IMG/VR virus record: IMGVR_UViG_2703718841_000007
Source of the DNA: a virus
Taxonomy: Duplodnaviria > Heunggongvirae > Uroviricota > Caudoviricetes
Length of the DNA stretch: 13,197 bases
Direction: 5' to 3' (one strand)
Shown here: positions 1,426 to 11,837 of the stretch, in pieces
Numbering within the stretch: position 1 is the first letter of the stretch
Layout of the letters: each line of letters opens with the position of its first letter
Notes under the pieces: generated by a model
Seen by the model: only the letters and a program-made list of their open reading frames with translations
What the model was told of the DNA's origin: nothing
Database searches by the model: none
Program-made: the position numbers and the translations under genes

Positions 1426-1695
1426 CGTCACAACCATCACGCCCCACAAAAAAAACCATTAACCATCTGATTATCATGAATAAATGTTGTGATGGTAAAA
1501 CCATCACAAAACGTAACGTAAACCGTCACACCCTATAAATTCAGCGAGTTATAAAACAGAGTTGTGATGTTTTAAGGCCGTCACACTGTGATGCTCTTGT
1601 GATGCTCTTGTGATGGTTTTCAATATATGAATTTACTTATACATATCATATAGATAAATGATATTTTTTAAATCTGTGATGTTTGTGACGGTTTT
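1426..1695. repeat. Iteron-like array: at least 12 copies of TGTGATG(G)/TGTGACG(G) in both orientations, with a near-perfect 25-bp palindrome and an AT-rich tract
   Basis: Read directly. CGTCACA 1426-1432 and ACCATCAC 1433-1440; palindrome GTTGTGATGG-TAAAA-CCATCACAA 1486-1510; CGTCACA 1524-1530; GTTGTGATG 1561-1569; tandem TGTGATGCTCT x2 (1587-1608) then TGTGATGGTTTT (1609-1620); TGTGATG 1675-1681 and TGTGACGG 1684-1691. AT-rich tract 1621-1672. No ORF of 60 aa or more. Confidence 0.6.
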
Positions 1696-1943
1696 CCGAT
1701 GCTCCCCCTAAATTTTTGAAAAAATTAGAAGTGGTCAGAAATCACCCTGATTTGTTGGTGGTTTTGTATATATCTCTGTTAGTGATTTGAGCATTGGTGC
1801 AGTACGTTAATGTAGGTACTGCCCCAGCCCGGTGTCCCGCTGTGCCGGGATGAACGCGATCTCGTCCATCTGGCTGTCAAATCCCTGCATTGCCCGTCTG
1901 GGCATGTTCGCAATGAGAAAATCGGTTAATGCCGTTAACTGGC

Positions 1944-3406: not shown

Positions 3407-4108
3407 TTACTCGCCTGCCGGAGGCGCGACAGGTGCCCCGATAGCTACCGCTTCTTCCGCCTCACCCAGACGGGTTTCAATAGCAGATACGCGCTTATCA
3501 ATGGCATCCAGCGCTTCAGCCAGCGCCTGTAAGGCATCAGACTGTGAAGGTTCCTGCTCCGGGGTCTGCTCCGGTTCTTCGATACTGAAAAAATGGCGCC
3601 AGCCCTTTTTCGCTGTCTTTGACATTCCCTTTTCCTTTTTAAATTCCCTGACTTCATCAAACGCCAGCGGCTTGTATGGTCCGATGCGTTTTCCCCTGGT
3701 GCGGCTGAAACGTAACCGTGTGGTGCTTACCCCGGCCGGACTGTCAGTAATGGCCAGTCCCTCAAGATAGGTTTTCCCGGTATTTCTGAAATTGCCGTCC
3801 GGTGTAAACTCCGGTGATAAAAATAAAAGCTGACCGTCTGCATTTGCCTGTAGCAATGAAATCGCCGGACAGAGGCGGGCATATAAACGAAGAATACCTT
3901 CATCATCCCGCTCGGCTTTTACTTCCAGCACCTCCCCCATATTCCCGAAATTACGGGAATGTTCCGGCCATAACAGCGCGGTATACAAAGAGGGGTCATA
4001 TAATTCAGCGGCATCAAGCAACCATTGTTCTTCAATAAATCGCTTATCAACCGTTTCACCCGCAGTGGCGATACAAATCCAGTTTGTTGCCAGTTGTGAA
4101 CCTGACAT
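3407..4108 (-). CDS. P2 gpO-like capsid scaffolding protein/protease
   Basis: GKTYLEGLAITDSPAGVSTTRL and a C-terminal coiled-coil-like region (EALDAIDKRVSAIETRLGEAEE) resemble the gpO family. The track ORF starts at GTG 4168, but the ATG at 4108 has a perfect GGAGG 5 nt upstream and is preferred. Shorter than my recollection of P2 gpO (about 284 aa). Confidence 0.7.
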   Translation of the reverse strand: MSGSQLATNWICIATAGETVDKRFIEEQWLLDAAELYDPSLYTALLWPEHSRNFGNMGEVLEVKAERDDEGILRLYARLCPAISLLQANADGQLLFLSPEFTPDGNFRNTGKTYLEGLAITDSPAGVSTTRLRFSRTRGKRIGPYKPLAFDEVREFKKEKGMSKTAKKGWRHFFSIEEPEQTPEQEPSQSDALQALAEALDAIDKRVSAIETRLGEAEEAVAIGAPVAPPAGE

Positions 4109-4251: not shown

Positions 4252-5496
4252 ATGGCTAAATATTCAGAAGAATTAAAAGGCGTTGCGCGGGCGCTTTATT
4301 TAAAACGCTATACCCCGCAGGAAATTGCCAGCGAACTTAATCTGCCTAACAGACGCATTGTCTATTACTGGGCGGAGAAATATTGCTGGGCGGAATTACT
4401 CAGTCATGAATCCACCGAAGATGCATTAAACCGTCGCATTCAGTCACTGACATTACGTGAAGGGAAATCGGAGCTGGAGCTGCGGGAGCTGGACAGTCTC
4501 GTTTCTCACCTGGTGAAACTACGTGCACAGCACAATAAGCATCAGGAAAAGCTGGCAGAAATTAAACACAGTGAAAATGATGCGCCGGCGCGTCAGTCCG
4601 GTGGCGACGAAAAGCCCCGGAAACGTGGCAAGTACAAAAAGAACGACATCAGCGGACTGACACAGGAAGATTTTGACCGGTTCGCGCTGGAGCACCTTTT
4701 CGGTTACCAGAAACACCTTCGCGCTAATCTTCATCAGCAAATCAGGAACATCCTGAAAAGCCGCCAGATTGGTGCAACCTGGTATTTCTCAATAGAAGCC
4801 TTTGAGAATGCGGTCATGACAGGCGATCCGCAAATCTTCCTGTCCGCATCAAAGGCTCAGGCGGAAGTATTCCGCAGCTATATCGTCAACATTGCGGAGC
4901 AGTATTTCGGCGTGGAGCTGACGGGAAACCCCATCCGCCTCTCCAACGGCGCGGAGATGCGATTCCTGTCCACCAACAAGAACACCGCCCAGTCATACAG
5001 CGGCCATCTGTACTGCGATGAATATTTCTGGGTACCCAACTTTGCAAAATTAAACGAAGTGGCCAGCGCGATGGCCACACACGACAAATGGCGAACCACC
5101 TACTTTTCCACCCCCAGCAGCAAAACGCACCAGGCGTACCCGTTCTGGACTGGTGAAGAATGGAAGCGCGGTGACAAAAAACGCGCGCGCGTACAATTTC
5201 CCACGGAGAAGGAGCTGCGCGACGGTGGACGGTTATGTCCTGATGGGCAGTGGCGCTACATCATCACAATGGAAGACGCGATCGCAGGCGGGTTTAATCT
5301 CGCCAGCATCGGGAAGCTGCGCAACCGCTACAACCGCGACACTTTCAACATGCTGTATATGTGCGTGTTCGTGGACAGCAAGGACAGCGTATTTTCGTTC
5401 TCTCACGTAGAACGCTGCTGTGTAGATCCGGATATGACAATGAAGCGGAACACTGGACGCTCCCGATTGACCGGCTGGCGCTGGCGCAACTGGTGA
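4252..5496 (+). CDS. P2 gpP-like terminase large (ATPase) subunit, C-terminally truncated; probable pseudogene
   Basis: N-terminal HTH-like region, then KSRQIGATWYF (Walker A-like), FLSAS, DEYFWVP (Walker B-like) and YFSTPSS...PFWTGE typical of the gpP family. Family resemblance stops near 5427 (...HVERCCVD) and the ORF ends after a 23-aa unrelated tail. It has about 415 aa against about 590 in P2 gpP (recalled), so the C-terminal nuclease domain is absent. The GTG at 4237 is an alternative start. Confidence 0.65.
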   Translation: MAKYSEELKGVARALYLKRYTPQEIASELNLPNRRIVYYWAEKYCWAELLSHESTEDALNRRIQSLTLREGKSELELRELDSLVSHLVKLRAQHNKHQEKLAEIKHSENDAPARQSGGDEKPRKRGKYKKNDISGLTQEDFDRFALEHLFGYQKHLRANLHQQIRNILKSRQIGATWYFSIEAFENAVMTGDPQIFLSASKAQAEVFRSYIVNIAEQYFGVELTGNPIRLSNGAEMRFLSTNKNTAQSYSGHLYCDEYFWVPNFAKLNEVASAMATHDKWRTTYFSTPSSKTHQAYPFWTGEEWKRGDKKRARVQFPTEKELRDGGRLCPDGQWRYIITMEDAIAGGFNLASIGKLRNRYNRDTFNMLYMCVFVDSKDSVFSFSHVERCCVDPDMTMKRNTGRSRLTGWRWRNW

Positions 5497-6800: not shown

Positions 6801-7520
6801 ATGTTAATAGTCTCAGTTCTTAAATGTAGTAAAGAGTTTACCCCTAAACACGCCCAATGGCTTCATCGTCAGTTCAAAGATATTCCATCTATATGTTTAA
6901 CCGATGCAGATAATATTCCTGGAGTTAACACAACCCCTTTGCTTTATAACTGGCCGGGATGGTGGTCTAAAATTGAACTATTTAATCCTAATCACCCAGT
7001 CCTTGGAGACCAAGATTTACTCTATTTTGACGTAGATGTTGTGGTCACGGGAGATATTCATATTTTCGAAGGTGCGAAGAAATTTACAATGCTTCGGGAG
7101 TTTAACCATGCCTCAAGAGTAAACTCATCAATAATGATGATTCCGGCGTCGATTAAAAAGACGATTTGGGAACAATTCATTATTGATCCTGAGAAAATTA
7201 TGCGCAATTGTCAGACTGAAGACAAATGGGGTGATCAGGGATTTCTCGGTAGCATCATAAAACCAGCCCTATGGCAGGATATCATTCCTGGCTCAATTGT
7301 TAGTTATAAATGTGACATCGCCACCCCCTCGATGATTGGCTTCAATGCAAATTTAGCCTCTGAGGCTGCGACAGGGAAAGTCCCTGATAATGTGGCGGTT
7401 GTTTGCTTTCATGGCAGTCCACGCCCCTGGCGTACTGGTTTTGATTGGGTTCCTTCGTTTTCCCTGCGGGATACTCTGTACGGTAAATTAAAGAACTTTA
7501 AAATAAGAATGAAGCAATAA
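6801..7520 (+). CDS. GT-A-fold glycosyltransferase-like protein (GT8-like DxD and H-x-G-x-x-[KR]-P-W motifs); accessory/cargo gene
   Basis: LYFDVDVVV (DxD, about residue 75) and CFHGSPRPW (about residue 212) match the two signature motifs of retaining GT8-type transferases (LgtC/WaaJ type), with similar inter-motif spacing. Strong Shine-Dalgarno. AT-rich relative to neighbours (60-nt lines hand-counted: 6841-6900 has 24 G+C, 7141-7200 has 21 G+C). Convergent with the primase gene. Confidence 0.5.
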   Translation: MLIVSVLKCSKEFTPKHAQWLHRQFKDIPSICLTDADNIPGVNTTPLLYNWPGWWSKIELFNPNHPVLGDQDLLYFDVDVVVTGDIHIFEGAKKFTMLREFNHASRVNSSIMMIPASIKKTIWEQFIIDPEKIMRNCQTEDKWGDQGFLGSIIKPALWQDIIPGSIVSYKCDIATPSMIGFNANLASEAATGKVPDNVAVVCFHGSPRPWRTGFDWVPSFSLRDTLYGKLKNFKIRMKQ

Positions 7521-7588
7521 AGATAACGCCCCTATTGCTTCAATGTTCGCTCCTTCCCCTAACAATAAAGTTAGGCACTAGTGAACCG

Positions 7589-10246
7589 TTACTTTTCCCG
7601 GCCAAATATCCAGCAGCGGAATGTTTCCGGCATCCGTTGCATATCCCCTTTACCACGATTATGGCGCTCACTTACCGCGCTGCGCGTGGTGCTTTGTCTG
7701 ATAAACCGGCGCTCATTGCCGTTTTTAAGCAGCTTTTTAATTTCCGTTAACGTGAACGGAATACGCTGCCGGTGTGCTGCGGCGACCTCTTCCATGTGAT
7801 TGAAATTAACCGCGATTTCATTTTCATCTGATGAATGATTGATGCCATAAGGTGCCAGTTCATCCAAGTAATCAAACAGCTCCCAGAACTCCTGCACCAG
7901 AGGATGATCCTTTTTAAGTGCCTGACAACGTTCAACGGCCAGCGCGGTGATGGCTTCACGCGTTTTTTCTATACGTTCAACCGGCACCGGTACAACAAGT
8001 GCAAGCGCCTCCAGCAAGCCCACAAGCTGCGCGTGATTCTTTGCAATACGGATATGGCGAATACTGCTATTAGACTCCAGCTCATTCCTAGCTCGCTCGT
8101 ACCCCCTGCCGAACGTCTGCATGATTTCTTTTTCGCGCATGGTGGCCAGTAATGTGAATCCGGATACCTGGCTAACGGGGAGTTGTTCAAGTCGTTCTGC
8201 AGCGTGGCGCGTCTGAATGGACTGGCCGCGCTTGTCGGTATAGATGTGGATGATACGCTCCAGAAACGCCTTGCTGCCGTCTGTGTCGGCATTTTGCGCT
8301 ATCACAATACTTCCCCTGAACGGCGGCTCATACGTCTCGTTATTGTTCGATTTGATACCCACGGCGCGGGAGGCACGACCGTTATACAGTGATTTCAGCT
8401 CGTCCCAGTCAAAAGCGCGTTGCTTGGCGTTATCGGTAGTACGGTCGCCCTCAATCAGCACAACCGGCAGATTACCGACCTGGGCGAAGTTACGGCCACG
8501 CGCGGCGGCGGTAGATTTAGATGGGTCAAACCCTTCGTATTCCTCACGGCCGGCGAGCTTCCAGAGAAATTCTATCAGCGTGGATTTACCTGTCCCCGGC
8601 TCGCCCACGATTTCCAGAAACGGAAATGACTTGTCACGCTCGCGGATTTGTTCGGCAAACAGCGACCCCAGCCAGAACGCCAGAGCCACATACCCTTTTT
8701 CACCAAATGCCGTCCAGATATCGTCTACCCAACCCGTAGTAAACTCGTTCAGCTTCGGATTCAGATCCAGCGCCGGCGTGAGGCTCAGGCTCTTAACACT
8801 GGCACTGTTGATTTCGAAGTAATCCTCGTCGTTCATCTCATACAGCCGGCCATCGCAAACGGCCACGCGGTTAAACAACCAGGCGGCATAATCCTTGTTA
8901 TAGCCGATGAAATTCTGCGTCTTTACCTCTTTGATTTCAGGGAGGCGCATCTGGATGAACTTATCCAGCTGTTTGGTGCTGCCTGTGTACACCGCCCCTT
9001 TGGCGATGTGCAGCAGACGCTTTTTGAACTCGGCGGAGCTGGTGAGCTGATTAGCCGTGAAAGTATCTTTCACGGCTGGCCGGTTAGGCATACTGACTTT
9101 CACGTAATACCAGGACTCGTCCGTAGGTTCAGACCGCTGAAAGTAAAGCGGCGTCAGCCAGCAGTTAGCTATTTCGGTCACGCCGCCTGACTCTTTAACC
9201 GCCCGTTCTTTGGCCTCCCACTCCATCACCACTTCGGTACCGGTATTGGTGATGCGCTCATAGGCTCGCATATACCTGTCCAGATCCAGCTCAAACCAGT
9301 ACATGCGGGAGTTATGCTCAAAGTAGAACGAGTGCCACTCGTTATGCTGATGCATGAGCAGCGCTTTCTCAGTCGGGCTTTTTGCCAGAAGGAGATCGCC
9401 ATAGTAGCGATAATTTTTAATGTCCGACTTACTGAACCGGTTACGTAACAACAGGTCATTCCAGTCCAGCGATGCCGATGATTTCACCGGCTGCGCGGCA
9501 CGAGTTTTCCATCCTGCAGCATCACTACGGGCAGCGAACGCCAGTGTGTGCTTTGTGCCGGCTTTATCGCCGTCAAACGCCCATACAAGACGTGGACGTG
9601 GTTTTTCACCCAGTTCTTTGGCCAGCGTATCCAGTGCGGCCAGCGGATAGTTGTTACTGCTCAGTGTGGCAACTGCAGGTAACCCTGCCTGGCACAGACT
9701 CAGCGCGTTGAAGATTCCCTCAGTGATCCAGATTTCGTTCACTTCCTGCAGGTTGATAAAGGGAGGAACCCACCAGTGACCGACATAGCTTCCCCTGATG
9801 TTGGCTTTCTGCTTACCGAAGCGCTGCGGCTGGTCAATGATGCGCTCCCATGTTGCACCGCATGACAGCGAAAATCTGACCGTTGCCGACCCCATGCCAT
9901 CTTTCACGAATGCACCCTGGGTAAAACAGCCTTTTAATGGCTCAGTCTCCAGCCCTCTGGCCTCGCGCAGATACGCCTCAGCTACTGCATGGGGGTTATC
10001 TTCTGTGGTCTGGTAACGTTTTGACCAGTCTTCAAAGATATCCGGATACAGCTCTTTCACGACAATCTGATGTGCGCAGTTATTTTCACGGCCACATTTC
10101 AGAATCCAGGGCTTTTCTATGCTGGTAAATAATTCGCGCTTACGACAGGCAGGGCAAACGCCCTGCTGCAAATACTTATCCCGCTCTTTAAATTCAAAGT
10201 CCCGAACAAGACGGCGCACAACGTCCTGTTGTATCGTTTCGTTCAT
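7589..10246 (-). CDS. P4-alpha-type bifunctional DNA primase/helicase (zinc-binding plus TOPRIM primase, P-loop helicase, C-terminal domain)
   Basis: CPACRK...CGRENNC zinc motif; TOPRIM-like ITEGIFNALSL and WAFDGDKAG; Walker A IVGEPGTGKST. One 60-nt line (8461-8520) hand-counted at 38 G+C. The ORF is open from TTG 10282; the first ATG is 10246; neither has a good Shine-Dalgarno. This is not a P2 A-type rolling-circle initiator. Confidence 0.8.
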   Translation of the reverse strand: MNETIQQDVVRRLVRDFEFKERDKYLQQGVCPACRKRELFTSIEKPWILKCGRENNCAHQIVVKELYPDIFEDWSKRYQTTEDNPHAVAEAYLREARGLETEPLKGCFTQGAFVKDGMGSATVRFSLSCGATWERIIDQPQRFGKQKANIRGSYVGHWWVPPFINLQEVNEIWITEGIFNALSLCQAGLPAVATLSSNNYPLAALDTLAKELGEKPRPRLVWAFDGDKAGTKHTLAFAARSDAAGWKTRAAQPVKSSASLDWNDLLLRNRFSKSDIKNYRYYGDLLLAKSPTEKALLMHQHNEWHSFYFEHNSRMYWFELDLDRYMRAYERITNTGTEVVMEWEAKERAVKESGGVTEIANCWLTPLYFQRSEPTDESWYYVKVSMPNRPAVKDTFTANQLTSSAEFKKRLLHIAKGAVYTGSTKQLDKFIQMRLPEIKEVKTQNFIGYNKDYAAWLFNRVAVCDGRLYEMNDEDYFEINSASVKSLSLTPALDLNPKLNEFTTGWVDDIWTAFGEKGYVALAFWLGSLFAEQIRERDKSFPFLEIVGEPGTGKSTLIEFLWKLAGREEYEGFDPSKSTAAARGRNFAQVGNLPVVLIEGDRTTDNAKQRAFDWDELKSLYNGRASRAVGIKSNNNETYEPPFRGSIVIAQNADTDGSKAFLERIIHIYTDKRGQSIQTRHAAERLEQLPVSQVSGFTLLATMREKEIMQTFGRGYERARNELESNSSIRHIRIAKNHAQLVGLLEALALVVPVPVERIEKTREAITALAVERCQALKKDHPLVQEFWELFDYLDELAPYGINHSSDENEIAVNFNHMEEVAAAHRQRIPFTLTEIKKLLKNGNERRFIRQSTTRSAVSERHNRGKGDMQRMPETFRCWIFGREK

Positions 10247-10285
10247 AAATAATCCAGATGTGAAATAATGGGTAAAAGGCAAAAA

Positions 10286-10504
10286 CTATATTCTGTACTG
10301 CTTGTTATATCGCTCATGTGTCATTAGTTCCCAGCTTCTGCCCTTATCCTTACTCAGTAATCGCCAGCGATAAGAAACATAAACAGAGAAATAATGTTTT
10401 GGCTTAATAACCTGATATACCTTTTTGCCGTTGTAATATTCTGTCAGCACTGAAAATGCCTTGTGAATGACACTTTCACTTGCATGAGAGGTCACTGTAA
10501 GCAT
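10286..10504 (-). CDS. Hypothetical protein (72 aa), AT-rich
   Basis: ATG start 2 nt after the exonuclease stop; ends 3 nt before the primase ORF. No family recognised. Lys/Tyr/Arg-rich. Confidence 0.45.
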   Translation of the reverse strand: MLTVTSHASESVIHKAFSVLTEYYNGKKVYQVIKPKHYFSVYVSYRWRLLSKDKGRSWELMTHERYNKQYRI

Positions 10505-11085: not shown

Positions 11086-11421
11086 TTAACGTTGGGAAGC
11101 TGCAACAGATTTAAGATGCGAGTTATTACTTTTTAACGCTGTGGTAGCCAGCGACATAAGACCGGAAATGTTATTTTCAGTTGGTATATTTCCGCCAAAT
11201 ACCATAAGCGTGATTTTGTGCAGTTCTTCAAAATCATCACTATCATTATTAAAGCGAGCAGTGGAGGTTATACCCTCAAGGCATTTTGCAAGCTGAATGT
11301 TTAATTCCATTAACTGCAAGCCATCGCTATGTACAGAGAATGTTTCTTTATCAATGGTTTTTGCCTGAGCGTGATAGTTTTGCAACAGACTACGAATCAG
11401 CGTGGCATATTTAGTCTTCAT
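11086..11421 (-). CDS. Hypothetical protein (about 111 aa), AT-rich
   Basis: The ORF is open from TTG 11433; the ATG at 11421 has a GGGGA Shine-Dalgarno 7 nt upstream. Its stop is 9 nt before the exonuclease start. No family recognised. Confidence 0.45.
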   Translation of the reverse strand: MKTKYATLIRSLLQNYHAQAKTIDKETFSVHSDGLQLMELNIQLAKCLEGITSTARFNNDSDDFEELHKITLMVFGGNIPTENNISGLMSLATTALKSNNSHLKSVAASQR

Positions 11422-11447
11422 GATAATCCCCAATAATATTTAGTTTA

Positions 11448-11729
11448 CTAACGAGCACTTTTATCTTTCGTGAATAAACGGTTCTTCCAGTCATGCCATT
11501 CAGGCGGGGCAATTTGAGCCAAATGAATGGCATAAGCATCCCATTCCCCCCGATGGATATAGATTTCCCCACCTTTTTTTGATGGATTTAGAGGGTCTTT
11601 CATGCGGATTACCGGCAGTTTTCCAGCCGTGGCCATTTTGCGAATTGCAGCAGGCGTTTTGCCTATATATTCGGCAAAAAGCTCAGGGGTCACCAACTCT
11701 GAAAGCGCCTTTTCTGCTGGTTCCTTCAT
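11448..11729 (-). CDS. cox: P2 Cox-like excisionase/switch repressor
   Basis: 93 aa with AGKLPVIRMKDP, corresponding to the KLPVIDM region of P2 Cox as I recall it. It is transcribed divergently from the C-like repressor and is the first gene of the early operon, as in P2. Confidence 0.7.
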   Translation of the reverse strand: MKEPAEKALSELVTPELFAEYIGKTPAAIRKMATAGKLPVIRMKDPLNPSKKGGEIYIHRGEWDAYAIHLAQIAPPEWHDWKNRLFTKDKSAR

Positions 11730-11837
11730 CTGTGGTATCCTTCGTTAGTTTGGGTTCCTAGGGCGCTTTAAGTCGTTCTAGGGTTCTTTTGTCAAGGTTC
11801 TTTTGTAAGAACCAATAATAGTTGCGATACAAGAACC
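11730..11837. promoter_or_regulatory. Immunity-switch intergenic region with operator-like repeats between cox and the C-type repressor
   Basis: Read directly: GGTTCTT at 11782-11788 and 11796-11802; perfect inverted repeat GGTTCTT-TTGT-AAGAACC at 11796-11813; a further AAGAACC at 11831-11837 abutting the C start codon; direct repeat GTTC(C)TAGGG at 11753-11763 and 11775-11783. Confidence 0.6.

Follow-up and report, generated by a model that had tools for sequence, protein, structure and literature searches.

A 13,197-bp stretch of DNA catalogued as viral (IMG/VR record IMGVR_UViG_2703718841_000007, Caudoviricetes; hereafter the window) carries, between positions 1426 and 1690, a dense array of the short motif TGTGAYG in both orientations. 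The locus raises the question of what this array does and which protein uses it. An initial annotation of the window had suggested an origin made of iterons and an unwinding element, resembling the ori and cis replication region (crr) of phage P4. The comparative tests described here (site layout, link to a primase gene, melting tract, membership in the phage backbone) are consistent with that suggestion at the level of sequence. We propose that the array is probably the vegetative replication origin, of the P4-like iteron plus unwinding element type, of an Evevirus-type temperate phage (Peduoviridae, with a P2-like head), that it is used by the phage's own primase-helicase, and that it has been preserved in a defective prophage between raiA and pheL.

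Anatomy of the array

The motif TGTGAYG occurs 13 times in the window, and 11 of these copies, distributed over both strands, are located in 1426-1690. The number expected in the whole window is 3.66 +/- 1.86 (maximum, 10), and none of 200 whole-sequence shuffles reached 13. Together with a twelfth, slightly degenerate copy on the minus strand (GTGATGG, 1434-1440), which lies 9 bp from the first one, the array comprises 12 copies of a 7-8-bp unit in both orientations within 265 bp, in agreement with the minimum of twelve reported initially. The two stray copies in the window are at chance level, and no second cluster of the motif was found in the window or in the genome of Escherichia phage ESSI2_ev239 (hereafter ev239), a relative described below. 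The components of the array are as follows, with the offsets in quotation marks referring to the layout defined in a later section:

1404-1712, no strand: whole array, framed by imperfect inverted 37-nt arms (1404-1440 and 1676-1712) that hold both outer site pairs
1426-1441, minus strand: outer site pair 1, TGTGACG (1426-1432) and GTGATGG (1434-1440), 9 bp apart and like-oriented ("250b 259b")
1487-1509, no strand: 23-bp palindrome of two facing sites, TGTGATG at 1488-1494 (plus) and 1502-1508 (minus)
1524-1530, minus strand: single site TGTGACG
1563-1585, no strand: two facing sites, TGTGATG at 1563-1569 (plus) and TGTGACG at 1579-1585 (minus)
1587-1615, plus strand: three sites at 11-bp phase (1587, 1598, 1609), equivalent to "75a 86a 97a" and to the triple of the P4 ori
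1621-1672, no strand: AT-rich tract of 52 bp, 13.5% G+C, proposed DNA-unwinding element
1675-1690, plus strand: outer site pair 2, TGTGATG (1675-1681) and TGTGACG (1684-1690), 9 bp apart and inverted with respect to pair 1 ("0a 9a")
1691-1818, no strand: conserved non-coding flank with degenerate motif-like copies (e.g., TGGTGGTTTT), up to a deletion junction

The framing arms are 81% complementary and 235 nt apart. The palindrome, initially described as near-perfect and 25 bp long (1486-1510), is present but measures 23 bp: its two 10-nt arms match perfectly and are separated by 3 nt. The 11-bp tandem duplication noticed at 1587-1608 is real; it consists of two copies of the unit TGTGATGCTCT, and a third site follows in phase at 1609. 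The number of these units varies by strain: there are two full ones in the window, three in the prophage of E. coli NT1F10 (locus L003, 20259-20298), and the second unit is degenerate in ev239. As a result, the number of phased sites beside the AT-rich tract changes.

The low G+C content of 1621-1672 had also been recognized, but the tract lies among the sites and not simply after them: the 1587/1598/1609 triple is to its left, and the 1675/1684 pair is to its right. The lowest duplex stability of any 50-bp segment of the window is found here (-48.1 kcal/mol; window mean -69.6, standard deviation 5.7), and the minimum also falls in this tract in the 29-kb genome of ev239 and in the 40-kb L003 locus. 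The array region contains no open reading frame (ORF) of at least 50 amino acids, as the initial annotation had stated. A search of this region against Rfam gave no meaningful match (the single one had an E value of 0.99 and was far under its gathering score), and no convincing promoter was detected in it, the only candidates being weak promoter-like matches inside the AT-rich tract.

The array is part of the phage backbone

The genome of ev239 (Peduoviridae, Evevirus; NC_049392, locus L005) carries the array at 92% identity. The order of elements in this phage is int, attP with TGTGGAC arm sites, an O-acetyltransferase gene, the array, about 0.9 kb of mostly non-coding DNA with two small annotated ORFs, and the tail genes. 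A 19-mer from the array matched 16 IMG/VR contigs, and the cargo on the left-hand side differs among them. When 18 distinct copies of the array were aligned, the similarity began at approximately window position 1400 and the sequences further left were unrelated. Identity among these copies was 0.95 in the motif columns and 0.83 in the spacer columns; the associated Mann-Whitney p value of 2e-5 is indicative only, the copies being phylogenetically related. The initial annotation had left room for the array belonging to the acyltransferase locus. Because its relatives carry different cargo to its left, the array is not part of that locus and, judging from the alignments, belongs to the phage backbone.

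A fragment of the array, approximately 230 bp long and covering its left two-thirds as far as the AT-rich tract, was also found on two conjugative Salmonella enterica IncF plasmids, CP054717 (locus L004, 8001-8225) and CP053580. Its motifs are kept while its spacers have diverged, with 72-84% identity to the phage copies. The fragment is located within 860 bp of AT-rich DNA that separates a DUF883 operon from an acyl-CoA ligase/GNAT cluster, and the sequences on either side of it show no homology to phages. This copy may be a relic, or else a hitch-hiking site or a decoy. A scan of a 596-Gb genome collection with the 15-mer CGTCACAACCATCAC was too unspecific to be of use, since almost all of the 120 loci were chance matches. 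Runs of TGTGATG/TGTGACG with a 9-bp phase and in both orientations are present in an unrelated Lysobacteraceae contig from a metagenome-assembled genome (JAGXSL010000047; locus L102, 330-600), where they adjoin genes for a ParE toxin, a MarR-like helix-turn-helix (HTH) protein and a 1093-amino-acid DEAD-type helicase. They may represent another origin, or an operator, that uses the same word.

The site layout is conserved while the motif changes

The window contains the gene of a protein proposed to be the initiator that acts on the array:

7589-10246, minus strand: Zn-ribbon/Toprim/superfamily 3 (SF3) P-loop (DUF5906) primase-helicase, intact ORF, proposed cognate initiator

A generic k-mer cluster detector, which recovered crr and ori of P4 as a positive control, found one dense bidirectional array in each of the genomes of phiCTX, RSY1, Smp131, the Halomonas phage, phi3, PfPro and 2F_1, all of which encode a related primase. 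Fourteen other phage genomes or contigs with the same Zn-ribbon/Toprim/SF3 primase-helicase family, that of phiCTX orf37, hold an array of the same layout. The common plan consists of sites at 0 and 9, a gap of about 60 bp, sites at 75, 86, 97 and beyond, and an inverted pair at about 250/260. Three examples, with offsets in base pairs and a and b for the two orientations, are given here:

Evevirus (GTGAYG): 0a 9a 75a 86a 97a 106b 121a 161b 183b 196a 250b 259b
Phage 2F_1 (GTAACY): 0a 9a 74a 85a 96a 104b 119a 129b 183b 193b 206a 260b 269b
phiCTX (GGTAAY): 0a 9a 74a 85a 96a 105b 171b 183b 193b 205a 259b 268b

Arrays of the same plan are present in RSY1, Smp131, Halomonas phage 4908 and PfPro (TGTCAG). 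The repeated hexamer thus varies among phages (GGTAAY, GTAACY, TGTCAG, TGTAAG, TGTTCC) while the positions and orientations of the sites are kept. When all shifts and flips were allowed, none of 300 random arrays matched the layout as well as the real ones (the Halomonas array was outside this test). The gap after the first pair measures 59-61 bp in all layout arrays, and its G+C content is 0.14-0.36 in most of them and 0.56 in RSY1. Smp131, RSY1, phi3 and PfPro likewise have their least stable window within the array; by this measure the array comes second in phiCTX and third in the Halomonas phage.

A scan was then defined in terms that disregard the identity of the motif: any hexamer X repeated at 0, +9, +74 to +76 and then +11, with at most one mismatch and an optional inverted pair at +245 to +265. 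It gave exactly one match in each array-bearing genome and none in P2 or P4. In 1.76 Mb of unrelated DNA (the loci of the 15-mer scan) the background was no full match and one half match. Applied strictly to 80 IMG/VR primase loci, the scan found the full layout in four (L008 and L151, both Evevirus; L167 and L168), a count that gives no frequency because many of these loci or contigs appear to end before the expected array region. The arrays of L161-L164 and L166 were detected only by the k-mer cluster scan and motif-specific site mapping.

One of the arrays identified by layout has already been annotated. The "R3 repeats" of phiCTX (NC_003278, misc_feature 35100-35390, between attP and cos, the cohesive end site, with two annotated sites for integration host factor, IHF) are, by layout, the orthologous element. 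Like the Evevirus array, R3 has 12 sites with nearly identical offsets and orientations, is AT-rich (within a GC-rich genome) and coexists with a primase-helicase of the same family, 41% identical to that of the window. The two elements differ in motif, GGTAAT/AATTACC in R3 and TGTGAYG in Evevirus, and in placement: R3 adjoins attP, with cos 180 bp away; the Evevirus array has the inverse orientation, and the cargo gene stands between it and attP. No function of the R3 repeats was stated in the literature searched, the original phiCTX papers of 1993 and 1999 being outside the search, and no origin was described there for Smp131, RSY1 or Evevirus. An Evevirus origin, the assignment of R3 to the same element and a fixed layout under swapped motifs are absent from that literature, and earlier suggestions in the two phiCTX papers are possible.

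The primase-helicase accompanies the array

The primase ORF of the window most likely starts at the ATG at 10246; the mechanically defined ORF begins at a TTG at 10282 (885-897 amino acids). The protein is a full-length member of phrog_1139 and is 29-47% identical to the primases of phiCTX (orf37), Ralstonia RSY1, Stenotrophomonas Smp131, the Halomonas phage, Pseudomonas phi3, PfPro and the uncultured 2F_1. Toprim_3 and Toprim_2 domains were identified at residues 184-280, together with an invariant CxxC...C...C Zn-binding cluster, and DUF5906 at 558-666 is a sub-threshold Pfam match (22.8 bits against a cut-off of 27.6). Strains PSJ-12 and YPE10 have a truncation of, or a stop codon in, this ORF.

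Among 35 ev239 proteins compared by tblastn, the primase alone has homologues in all seven of the other reference array-bearing phages and none in P2. Head and terminase proteins of ev239 are also present in P2, while most of the array-bearing phages lack Cox, C and Int. Proximity follows the same trend. The closest relatives of the window's primase (51-55% identity) are those of L161-L164 and L166-L168, and in these loci an array of the same plan is located 0.2-1.3 kb 3' of the primase stop codon. In phi3 the dense array begins about 75 bp past the primase stop. In Evevirus, about 4.5 kb separates the primase gene from the array, and int, attP and the cargo gene lie between them.

These distributions bear on the idea that the array serves another DNA-binding protein (Cox, the C repressor, Ogr, a host nucleoid protein or a cargo regulator) and acts as a silencer or insulator between the cargo and the late genes. 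Its location at the edge of the variable cargo region would fit such a role, and so would the Salmonella plasmid copy, which is flanked by divergent operons and embedded in a long, AT-rich intergenic region. Cox and C are, nevertheless, poor candidates: their homologues, like those of Int, are missing from most array-bearing phages, as noted above, and the C-cox operator region has unrelated repeats (GGTTCTTTTGT/AAGAACC). A host factor is at odds with the motifs, which differ between two Pseudomonas phages (phiCTX and phi3) while GGTAAY is common to phages of Pseudomonas, Ralstonia, Stenotrophomonas and Halomonas. For CRP, the half-site spacing read directly from the sequence does not agree. 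There is also no strong promoter, and the array is downstream of the cargo gene's hairpin. We consider a function of this kind quite unlikely, and the initial suggestion of a binding array for another regulator found no support, the repressor operators between C and cox being different in sequence. The k-mer cluster scan also detected six copies of TTTGCA/TGCAAA (p ~7e-8) in the gp31-cox region of ev239 (24841-25160; approximately window 11100-11730), which may be Cox or repressor sites.

The C-terminal part of the primase-helicase was examined as the possible source of sequence specificity. In a model of the last 205 amino acids, the final ~75 residues (E130-133 to E195-202) show a strand-helix-helix-strand-helix-strand pattern that is compatible with a winged-helix fold. 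A word-indexed protein search with these 205 amino acids gave 16 matches, mostly fragments. Among the primases of L165-L168, identity is 93-97% over the first 690 amino acids, 82-93% in the helical C-terminal part and 67-83% over the last ~87 amino acids; the array motif switches within this group of close relatives, being TGTAACC in L167 and L168 and TGTGACC in L166. A specificity determinant would be expected to diverge in this way, rapidly and within the C-terminal unit alone, and specificity may reside there. Residue 887 (T or V, in the last strand) is the only one that separates TGTGAY from TGTAAC phages, and the GGTAAY phages also have T.

Relation to P4 and other origins

The kind of element proposed here is already known, since P4 has an origin with short iterons and an unwinding element that serves a related type of primase-helicase. 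Both the P4 and the Evevirus sites are non-coding, measure about 300 bp and are built of an octamer repeated in both orientations (TGTTCACC in P4) with pairs 9-10 bp apart; the motif itself differs. The six type-1 repeats annotated in the P4 ori (NC_001609), when flipped, are at 0a 10a 53b 75a 86a 96a. The Evevirus layout has counterparts for five of these six sites, and 3 of 300 random arrays do equally well. In particular, the pair, the AT-rich gap and the 11-bp-phased triple of the P4 ori (0, 10/75, 86, 96) superimpose on 0, 9/75, 86, 97 of Evevirus, and the matching part of the Evevirus array is the half with the AT-rich tract. The initiators have the Zn-ribbon, Toprim and DUF5906 P-loop in the same order, the complete order in P4 alpha being Zn-ribbon, Toprim, D5_N, DUF5906, Pox_D5. 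The similarity between P4 alpha and the window's primase is marginal, with BLASTP E values of 0.002-0.004 over the P-loop and Toprim segments.

A difference is found in the number of sites. P4 requires both ori and crr for replication, and these are 4.5 kb apart; Evevirus has one array, so that the two-site organization of a P4-type origin is not seen. The single array could then correspond to crr, a cis-acting enhancer bound by the primase-helicase while initiation and melting occur elsewhere. The P4 crr spans about 300 bp, contains pairs at a 9-bp spacing in the two orientations and is directly 3' of alpha, and the arrays of L161-L164 and phi3 hold the same position relative to the primase gene. 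An enhancer would leave the origin to be found elsewhere, but there is no second motif cluster in the window or in ev239, the least stable duplex of the genome is within the array, and the part of the layout that matches P4 fits ori instead of crr. We therefore regard a crr-like enhancer as unlikely.

Other replication systems share features with the array. The origins of Staphylococcus aureus pathogenicity islands (SaPI) and phage-inducible chromosomal islands (PICI) have short iterons in two sets around an AT-rich stretch, as here, and in L161-L164 the initiator gene is directly 5' of the array, as in the SaPI/PICI systems. The best fold match of the model of the C-terminal 205 amino acids was Cch (5dgk), the helicase of the staphylococcal cassette chromosome mec (SCCmec), and SaPI Rep (8tch) was also matched. 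The C-terminal part of the SaPI initiator carries its specificity. The classical iteron origins (lambda ori/O; the Rep-iteron systems of F, P1 and pSC101) likewise have repeats of the initiator site beside an AT-rich unwinding element. Their iterons are longer (17-22 bp) and for the most part directly repeated, and DnaA boxes usually accompany them, whereas the Evevirus units are 7-8 bp long, occur in both orientations with an overall dyad symmetry and lack DnaA boxes (matches to the DnaA box consensus in the window were at chance level). A classical, DnaA-dependent iteron origin was discarded for these reasons.

Observations against an origin and the location of cos

Several observations weigh against the assignment of the array as an origin. 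The array of phi3 lacks the detailed layout: it has six sites, and 97 of 300 random arrays match equally well. The phages compared were selected by primase homology, so that the co-occurrence of array and primase is partly built into the sample, and P2 is its sole negative control. Pox_D5, the origin-binding domain of P4 alpha, was not detected in the window's primase by Pfam or by a search of PDB sequences, and the matches of the fold search with the C-terminal model included no P4 alpha structure. The motif class is not cleanly matched to the identity of the C-terminal domain. The Salmonella IncF plasmids have a partial array and carry no primase, no Salmonella plasmids being among the primase matches in the plasmid collection. 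Finally, in phiCTX, RSY1, Smp131 and Halomonas phage 4908 the array ends at a fairly constant distance, 180-220 bp, from a P2-type cos, so that a packaging-linked role is conceivable in these four phages.

This last regularity, together with the IHF sites that the phiCTX record annotates within the array and the end of the ev239 record about 470 bp from it, raises the possibility of a cosB-like packaging accessory, a platform for the small terminase subunit (the gpM homologue) and/or IHF that would aid cos recognition. P2, which replicates by a gpA-dependent rolling circle mechanism, has a homologous cos and terminase but no such array, and its gpM homologue shows that the distribution of this protein does not track that of the array. 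The constant distance is also lost in other members of the group. In L161 and L162 a P2-type cos (nhmmer profile, E values of 1e-10 and 4e-11) is found next to Q, 2.4-3.2 kb beyond the array, with cargo genes between them. The Evevirus array is inverted relative to attP when compared with that of phiCTX, and the geometry with respect to cos therefore cannot be the same. Matches to the IHF consensus in the window are at chance level. A role in packaging appears, on balance, very unlikely.

The genes between the array and cos of L162 (cargo slot at 7028-9938) code for a C5 cytosine methylase, a HEPN protein of the MAE_28990 type and a GmrSD-type nuclease. This suggests that the slot is a hotspot for defence genes, in the same place as the acyltransferase gene of the window. 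The cos of Evevirus was not located by homology to the P2-type cos. The RefSeq record of ev239 (NC_049392) ends in a Nextera adapter followed by poly-A (29127-29203), and the initial 117 nt do not align collinearly with the prophage. The two true ends border on a single point, at approximately 20845 of L003 (...CCGCAGGCGGG / TGCGGTGTAGCGCC), about 470 bp from the array, which may be the physical end of the genome, i.e., cos. Repeats of AAAACTGAAATC are close to this point.

Proposed mode of action

The origin assignment leads to a model that is based on analogy with P4 alpha and SF3 initiator helicases. The primase-helicase encoded at 7589-10246 (minus strand) would recognize the TGTGAYG(G) octamer through its fast-evolving, winged-helix-like C-terminal region. 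The fixed geometry, with outer 9-bp pairs in inverted orientation at a distance of about 250 bp and a triple at 11-bp phase next to the AT-rich tract, would position protein oligomers on an element of overall dyad symmetry, in which each outer pair is followed inward by a gap and a cluster. Melting would start in the AT-rich tract at 1621-1672, the SF3 helicase would be loaded, and the Toprim domain would prime theta replication without DnaA, as in P4, so that the origin would fire.

A more specific version can be formulated tentatively, and we are inclined to doubt it as it stands. The array could be a double loading platform encoded in its geometry, in which two mirror-image half-origins, each made of an outer pair, a gap and a phased cluster, template the head-to-head assembly of two SF3 primase-helicase hexamers. 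The spacing would be fixed across host phyla, and the hexamer (TGTGAYG, TGTAACC, TGTAAG, TGTCAG, GGTAAY) would have been swapped repeatedly along with the fast-evolving C-terminal domain.

The prophage and its chromosomal location

A 487-bp stretch around the array is 98-100% identical to 22 complete E. coli chromosomes. In the three loci that were opened (L001-L003), the array is within a P2-like prophage located between raiA and pheL-pheA. The features of the window outside the array and the primase gene are as follows:

88-110, no strand: prophage end, with integrase arm-type sites GTCCACA (91-97) and GACCACA (102-108), directly past the raiA terminator
144-1331: Acyl_transf_3 acyltransferase
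1339-1358: hairpin between the acyltransferase gene and the array
To the right of the array, in order: head genes L, M, O', P' and Q, then an Ogr-like gene
6801-7520: phrog_1962 "glycosyltransferase" moron
Beyond the primase-helicase gene: a ParE-like ORF, a 3'-5' exonuclease gene, a hypothetical gene, cox, an HTH repressor gene and the start of int

Since the arm-type sites at 88-110 mark the prophage end, the acyltransferase gene and the array are inside the prophage. The similarity between these sites and the array deserves attention, because TGTGA(C/T)GG is one base off the Int arm site TGTGGAC(G/A): the ev239 arm TGTGGACGGTAAAA can be compared with TGTGACGGTAAAA in the array (28440-28500), and the arm CCGTCCACAAAACGTCCACA resembles CCATCACAAAACGTAACACA. 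The array could thus be a relic of, or a secondary set of, integrase arm-type sites. The genuine arm sites of ev239 (TGTGGAC, 26745-26966), however, flank the attP core 1.4-1.6 kb away from the array, and in the window the arm at 91-108 is at least 1.3 kb from the array, which has another motif. Twelve sites in a conserved 260-bp layout with an unwinding tract are not att-like, and phages whose integrases and arm sites are unrelated, phiCTX (R1/R2, GTTCCCA) among them, have this layout too. We consider this explanation extremely improbable; the likeness of the two motifs may be due either to coincidence or to common descent.

The prophage of the window is decayed: compared with its intact counterpart in E. 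coli NT1F10 (L003), it has lost three internal segments. The first deletion, of 13.9 kb (L003 20501-34394), removed every tail and lysis gene and, beyond the array, 0.5 kb of non-coding DNA. Its junction is at window 1815-1818, with 4 bp of microhomology, and position 1818 is fused to a tail-gene remnant that adjoins L. The second (1.2 kb, junction at 3443-3451) eliminated the capsid gene N and part of O, and the third (0.7 kb, junction at 5433-5435) affects the P/Q junction. The overlaps at the three junctions are 3-9 bp. The array had been described as lying just outside the last phage gene, which is not the case in the intact phage: it adjoins gene L here only because the 13.9-kb deletion took out the tail genes. 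Two accessory genes have no counterpart in ev239. The one at 6801-7520 has a low G+C content and encodes a 239-amino-acid protein that matches phrog_1962 and has no Pfam or PADLOC match. The other, an ORF at 10286-10504 located between the primase and exonuclease genes, encodes a 72-amino-acid ParE-like protein with no obvious antitoxin partner.

Implications

On this analysis the array is the likely origin of Evevirus-type phages, and orthology extends the assignment to phiCTX, RSA1/RSY1, Smp131 and numerous uncultured P2-like phages, whose R3-type repeat regions are annotated but have no function stated in the literature searched. The defective prophage in the window has retained an intact gene for the proposed initiator and a probable origin despite the loss of cos, capsid and tail genes. 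Automated searches for origins in phages that encode this primase family could make use of the precise site layout, and matched initiator/origin pairs of differing specificity would be available for replication studies or as orthogonal vectors. If the double-platform version of the model were correct, these phages would constitute a natural set of mutually orthogonal origin/initiator pairs, and the fragment in the Salmonella IncF plasmids would suggest a hitch-hiking site or a decoy that titrates the initiator.

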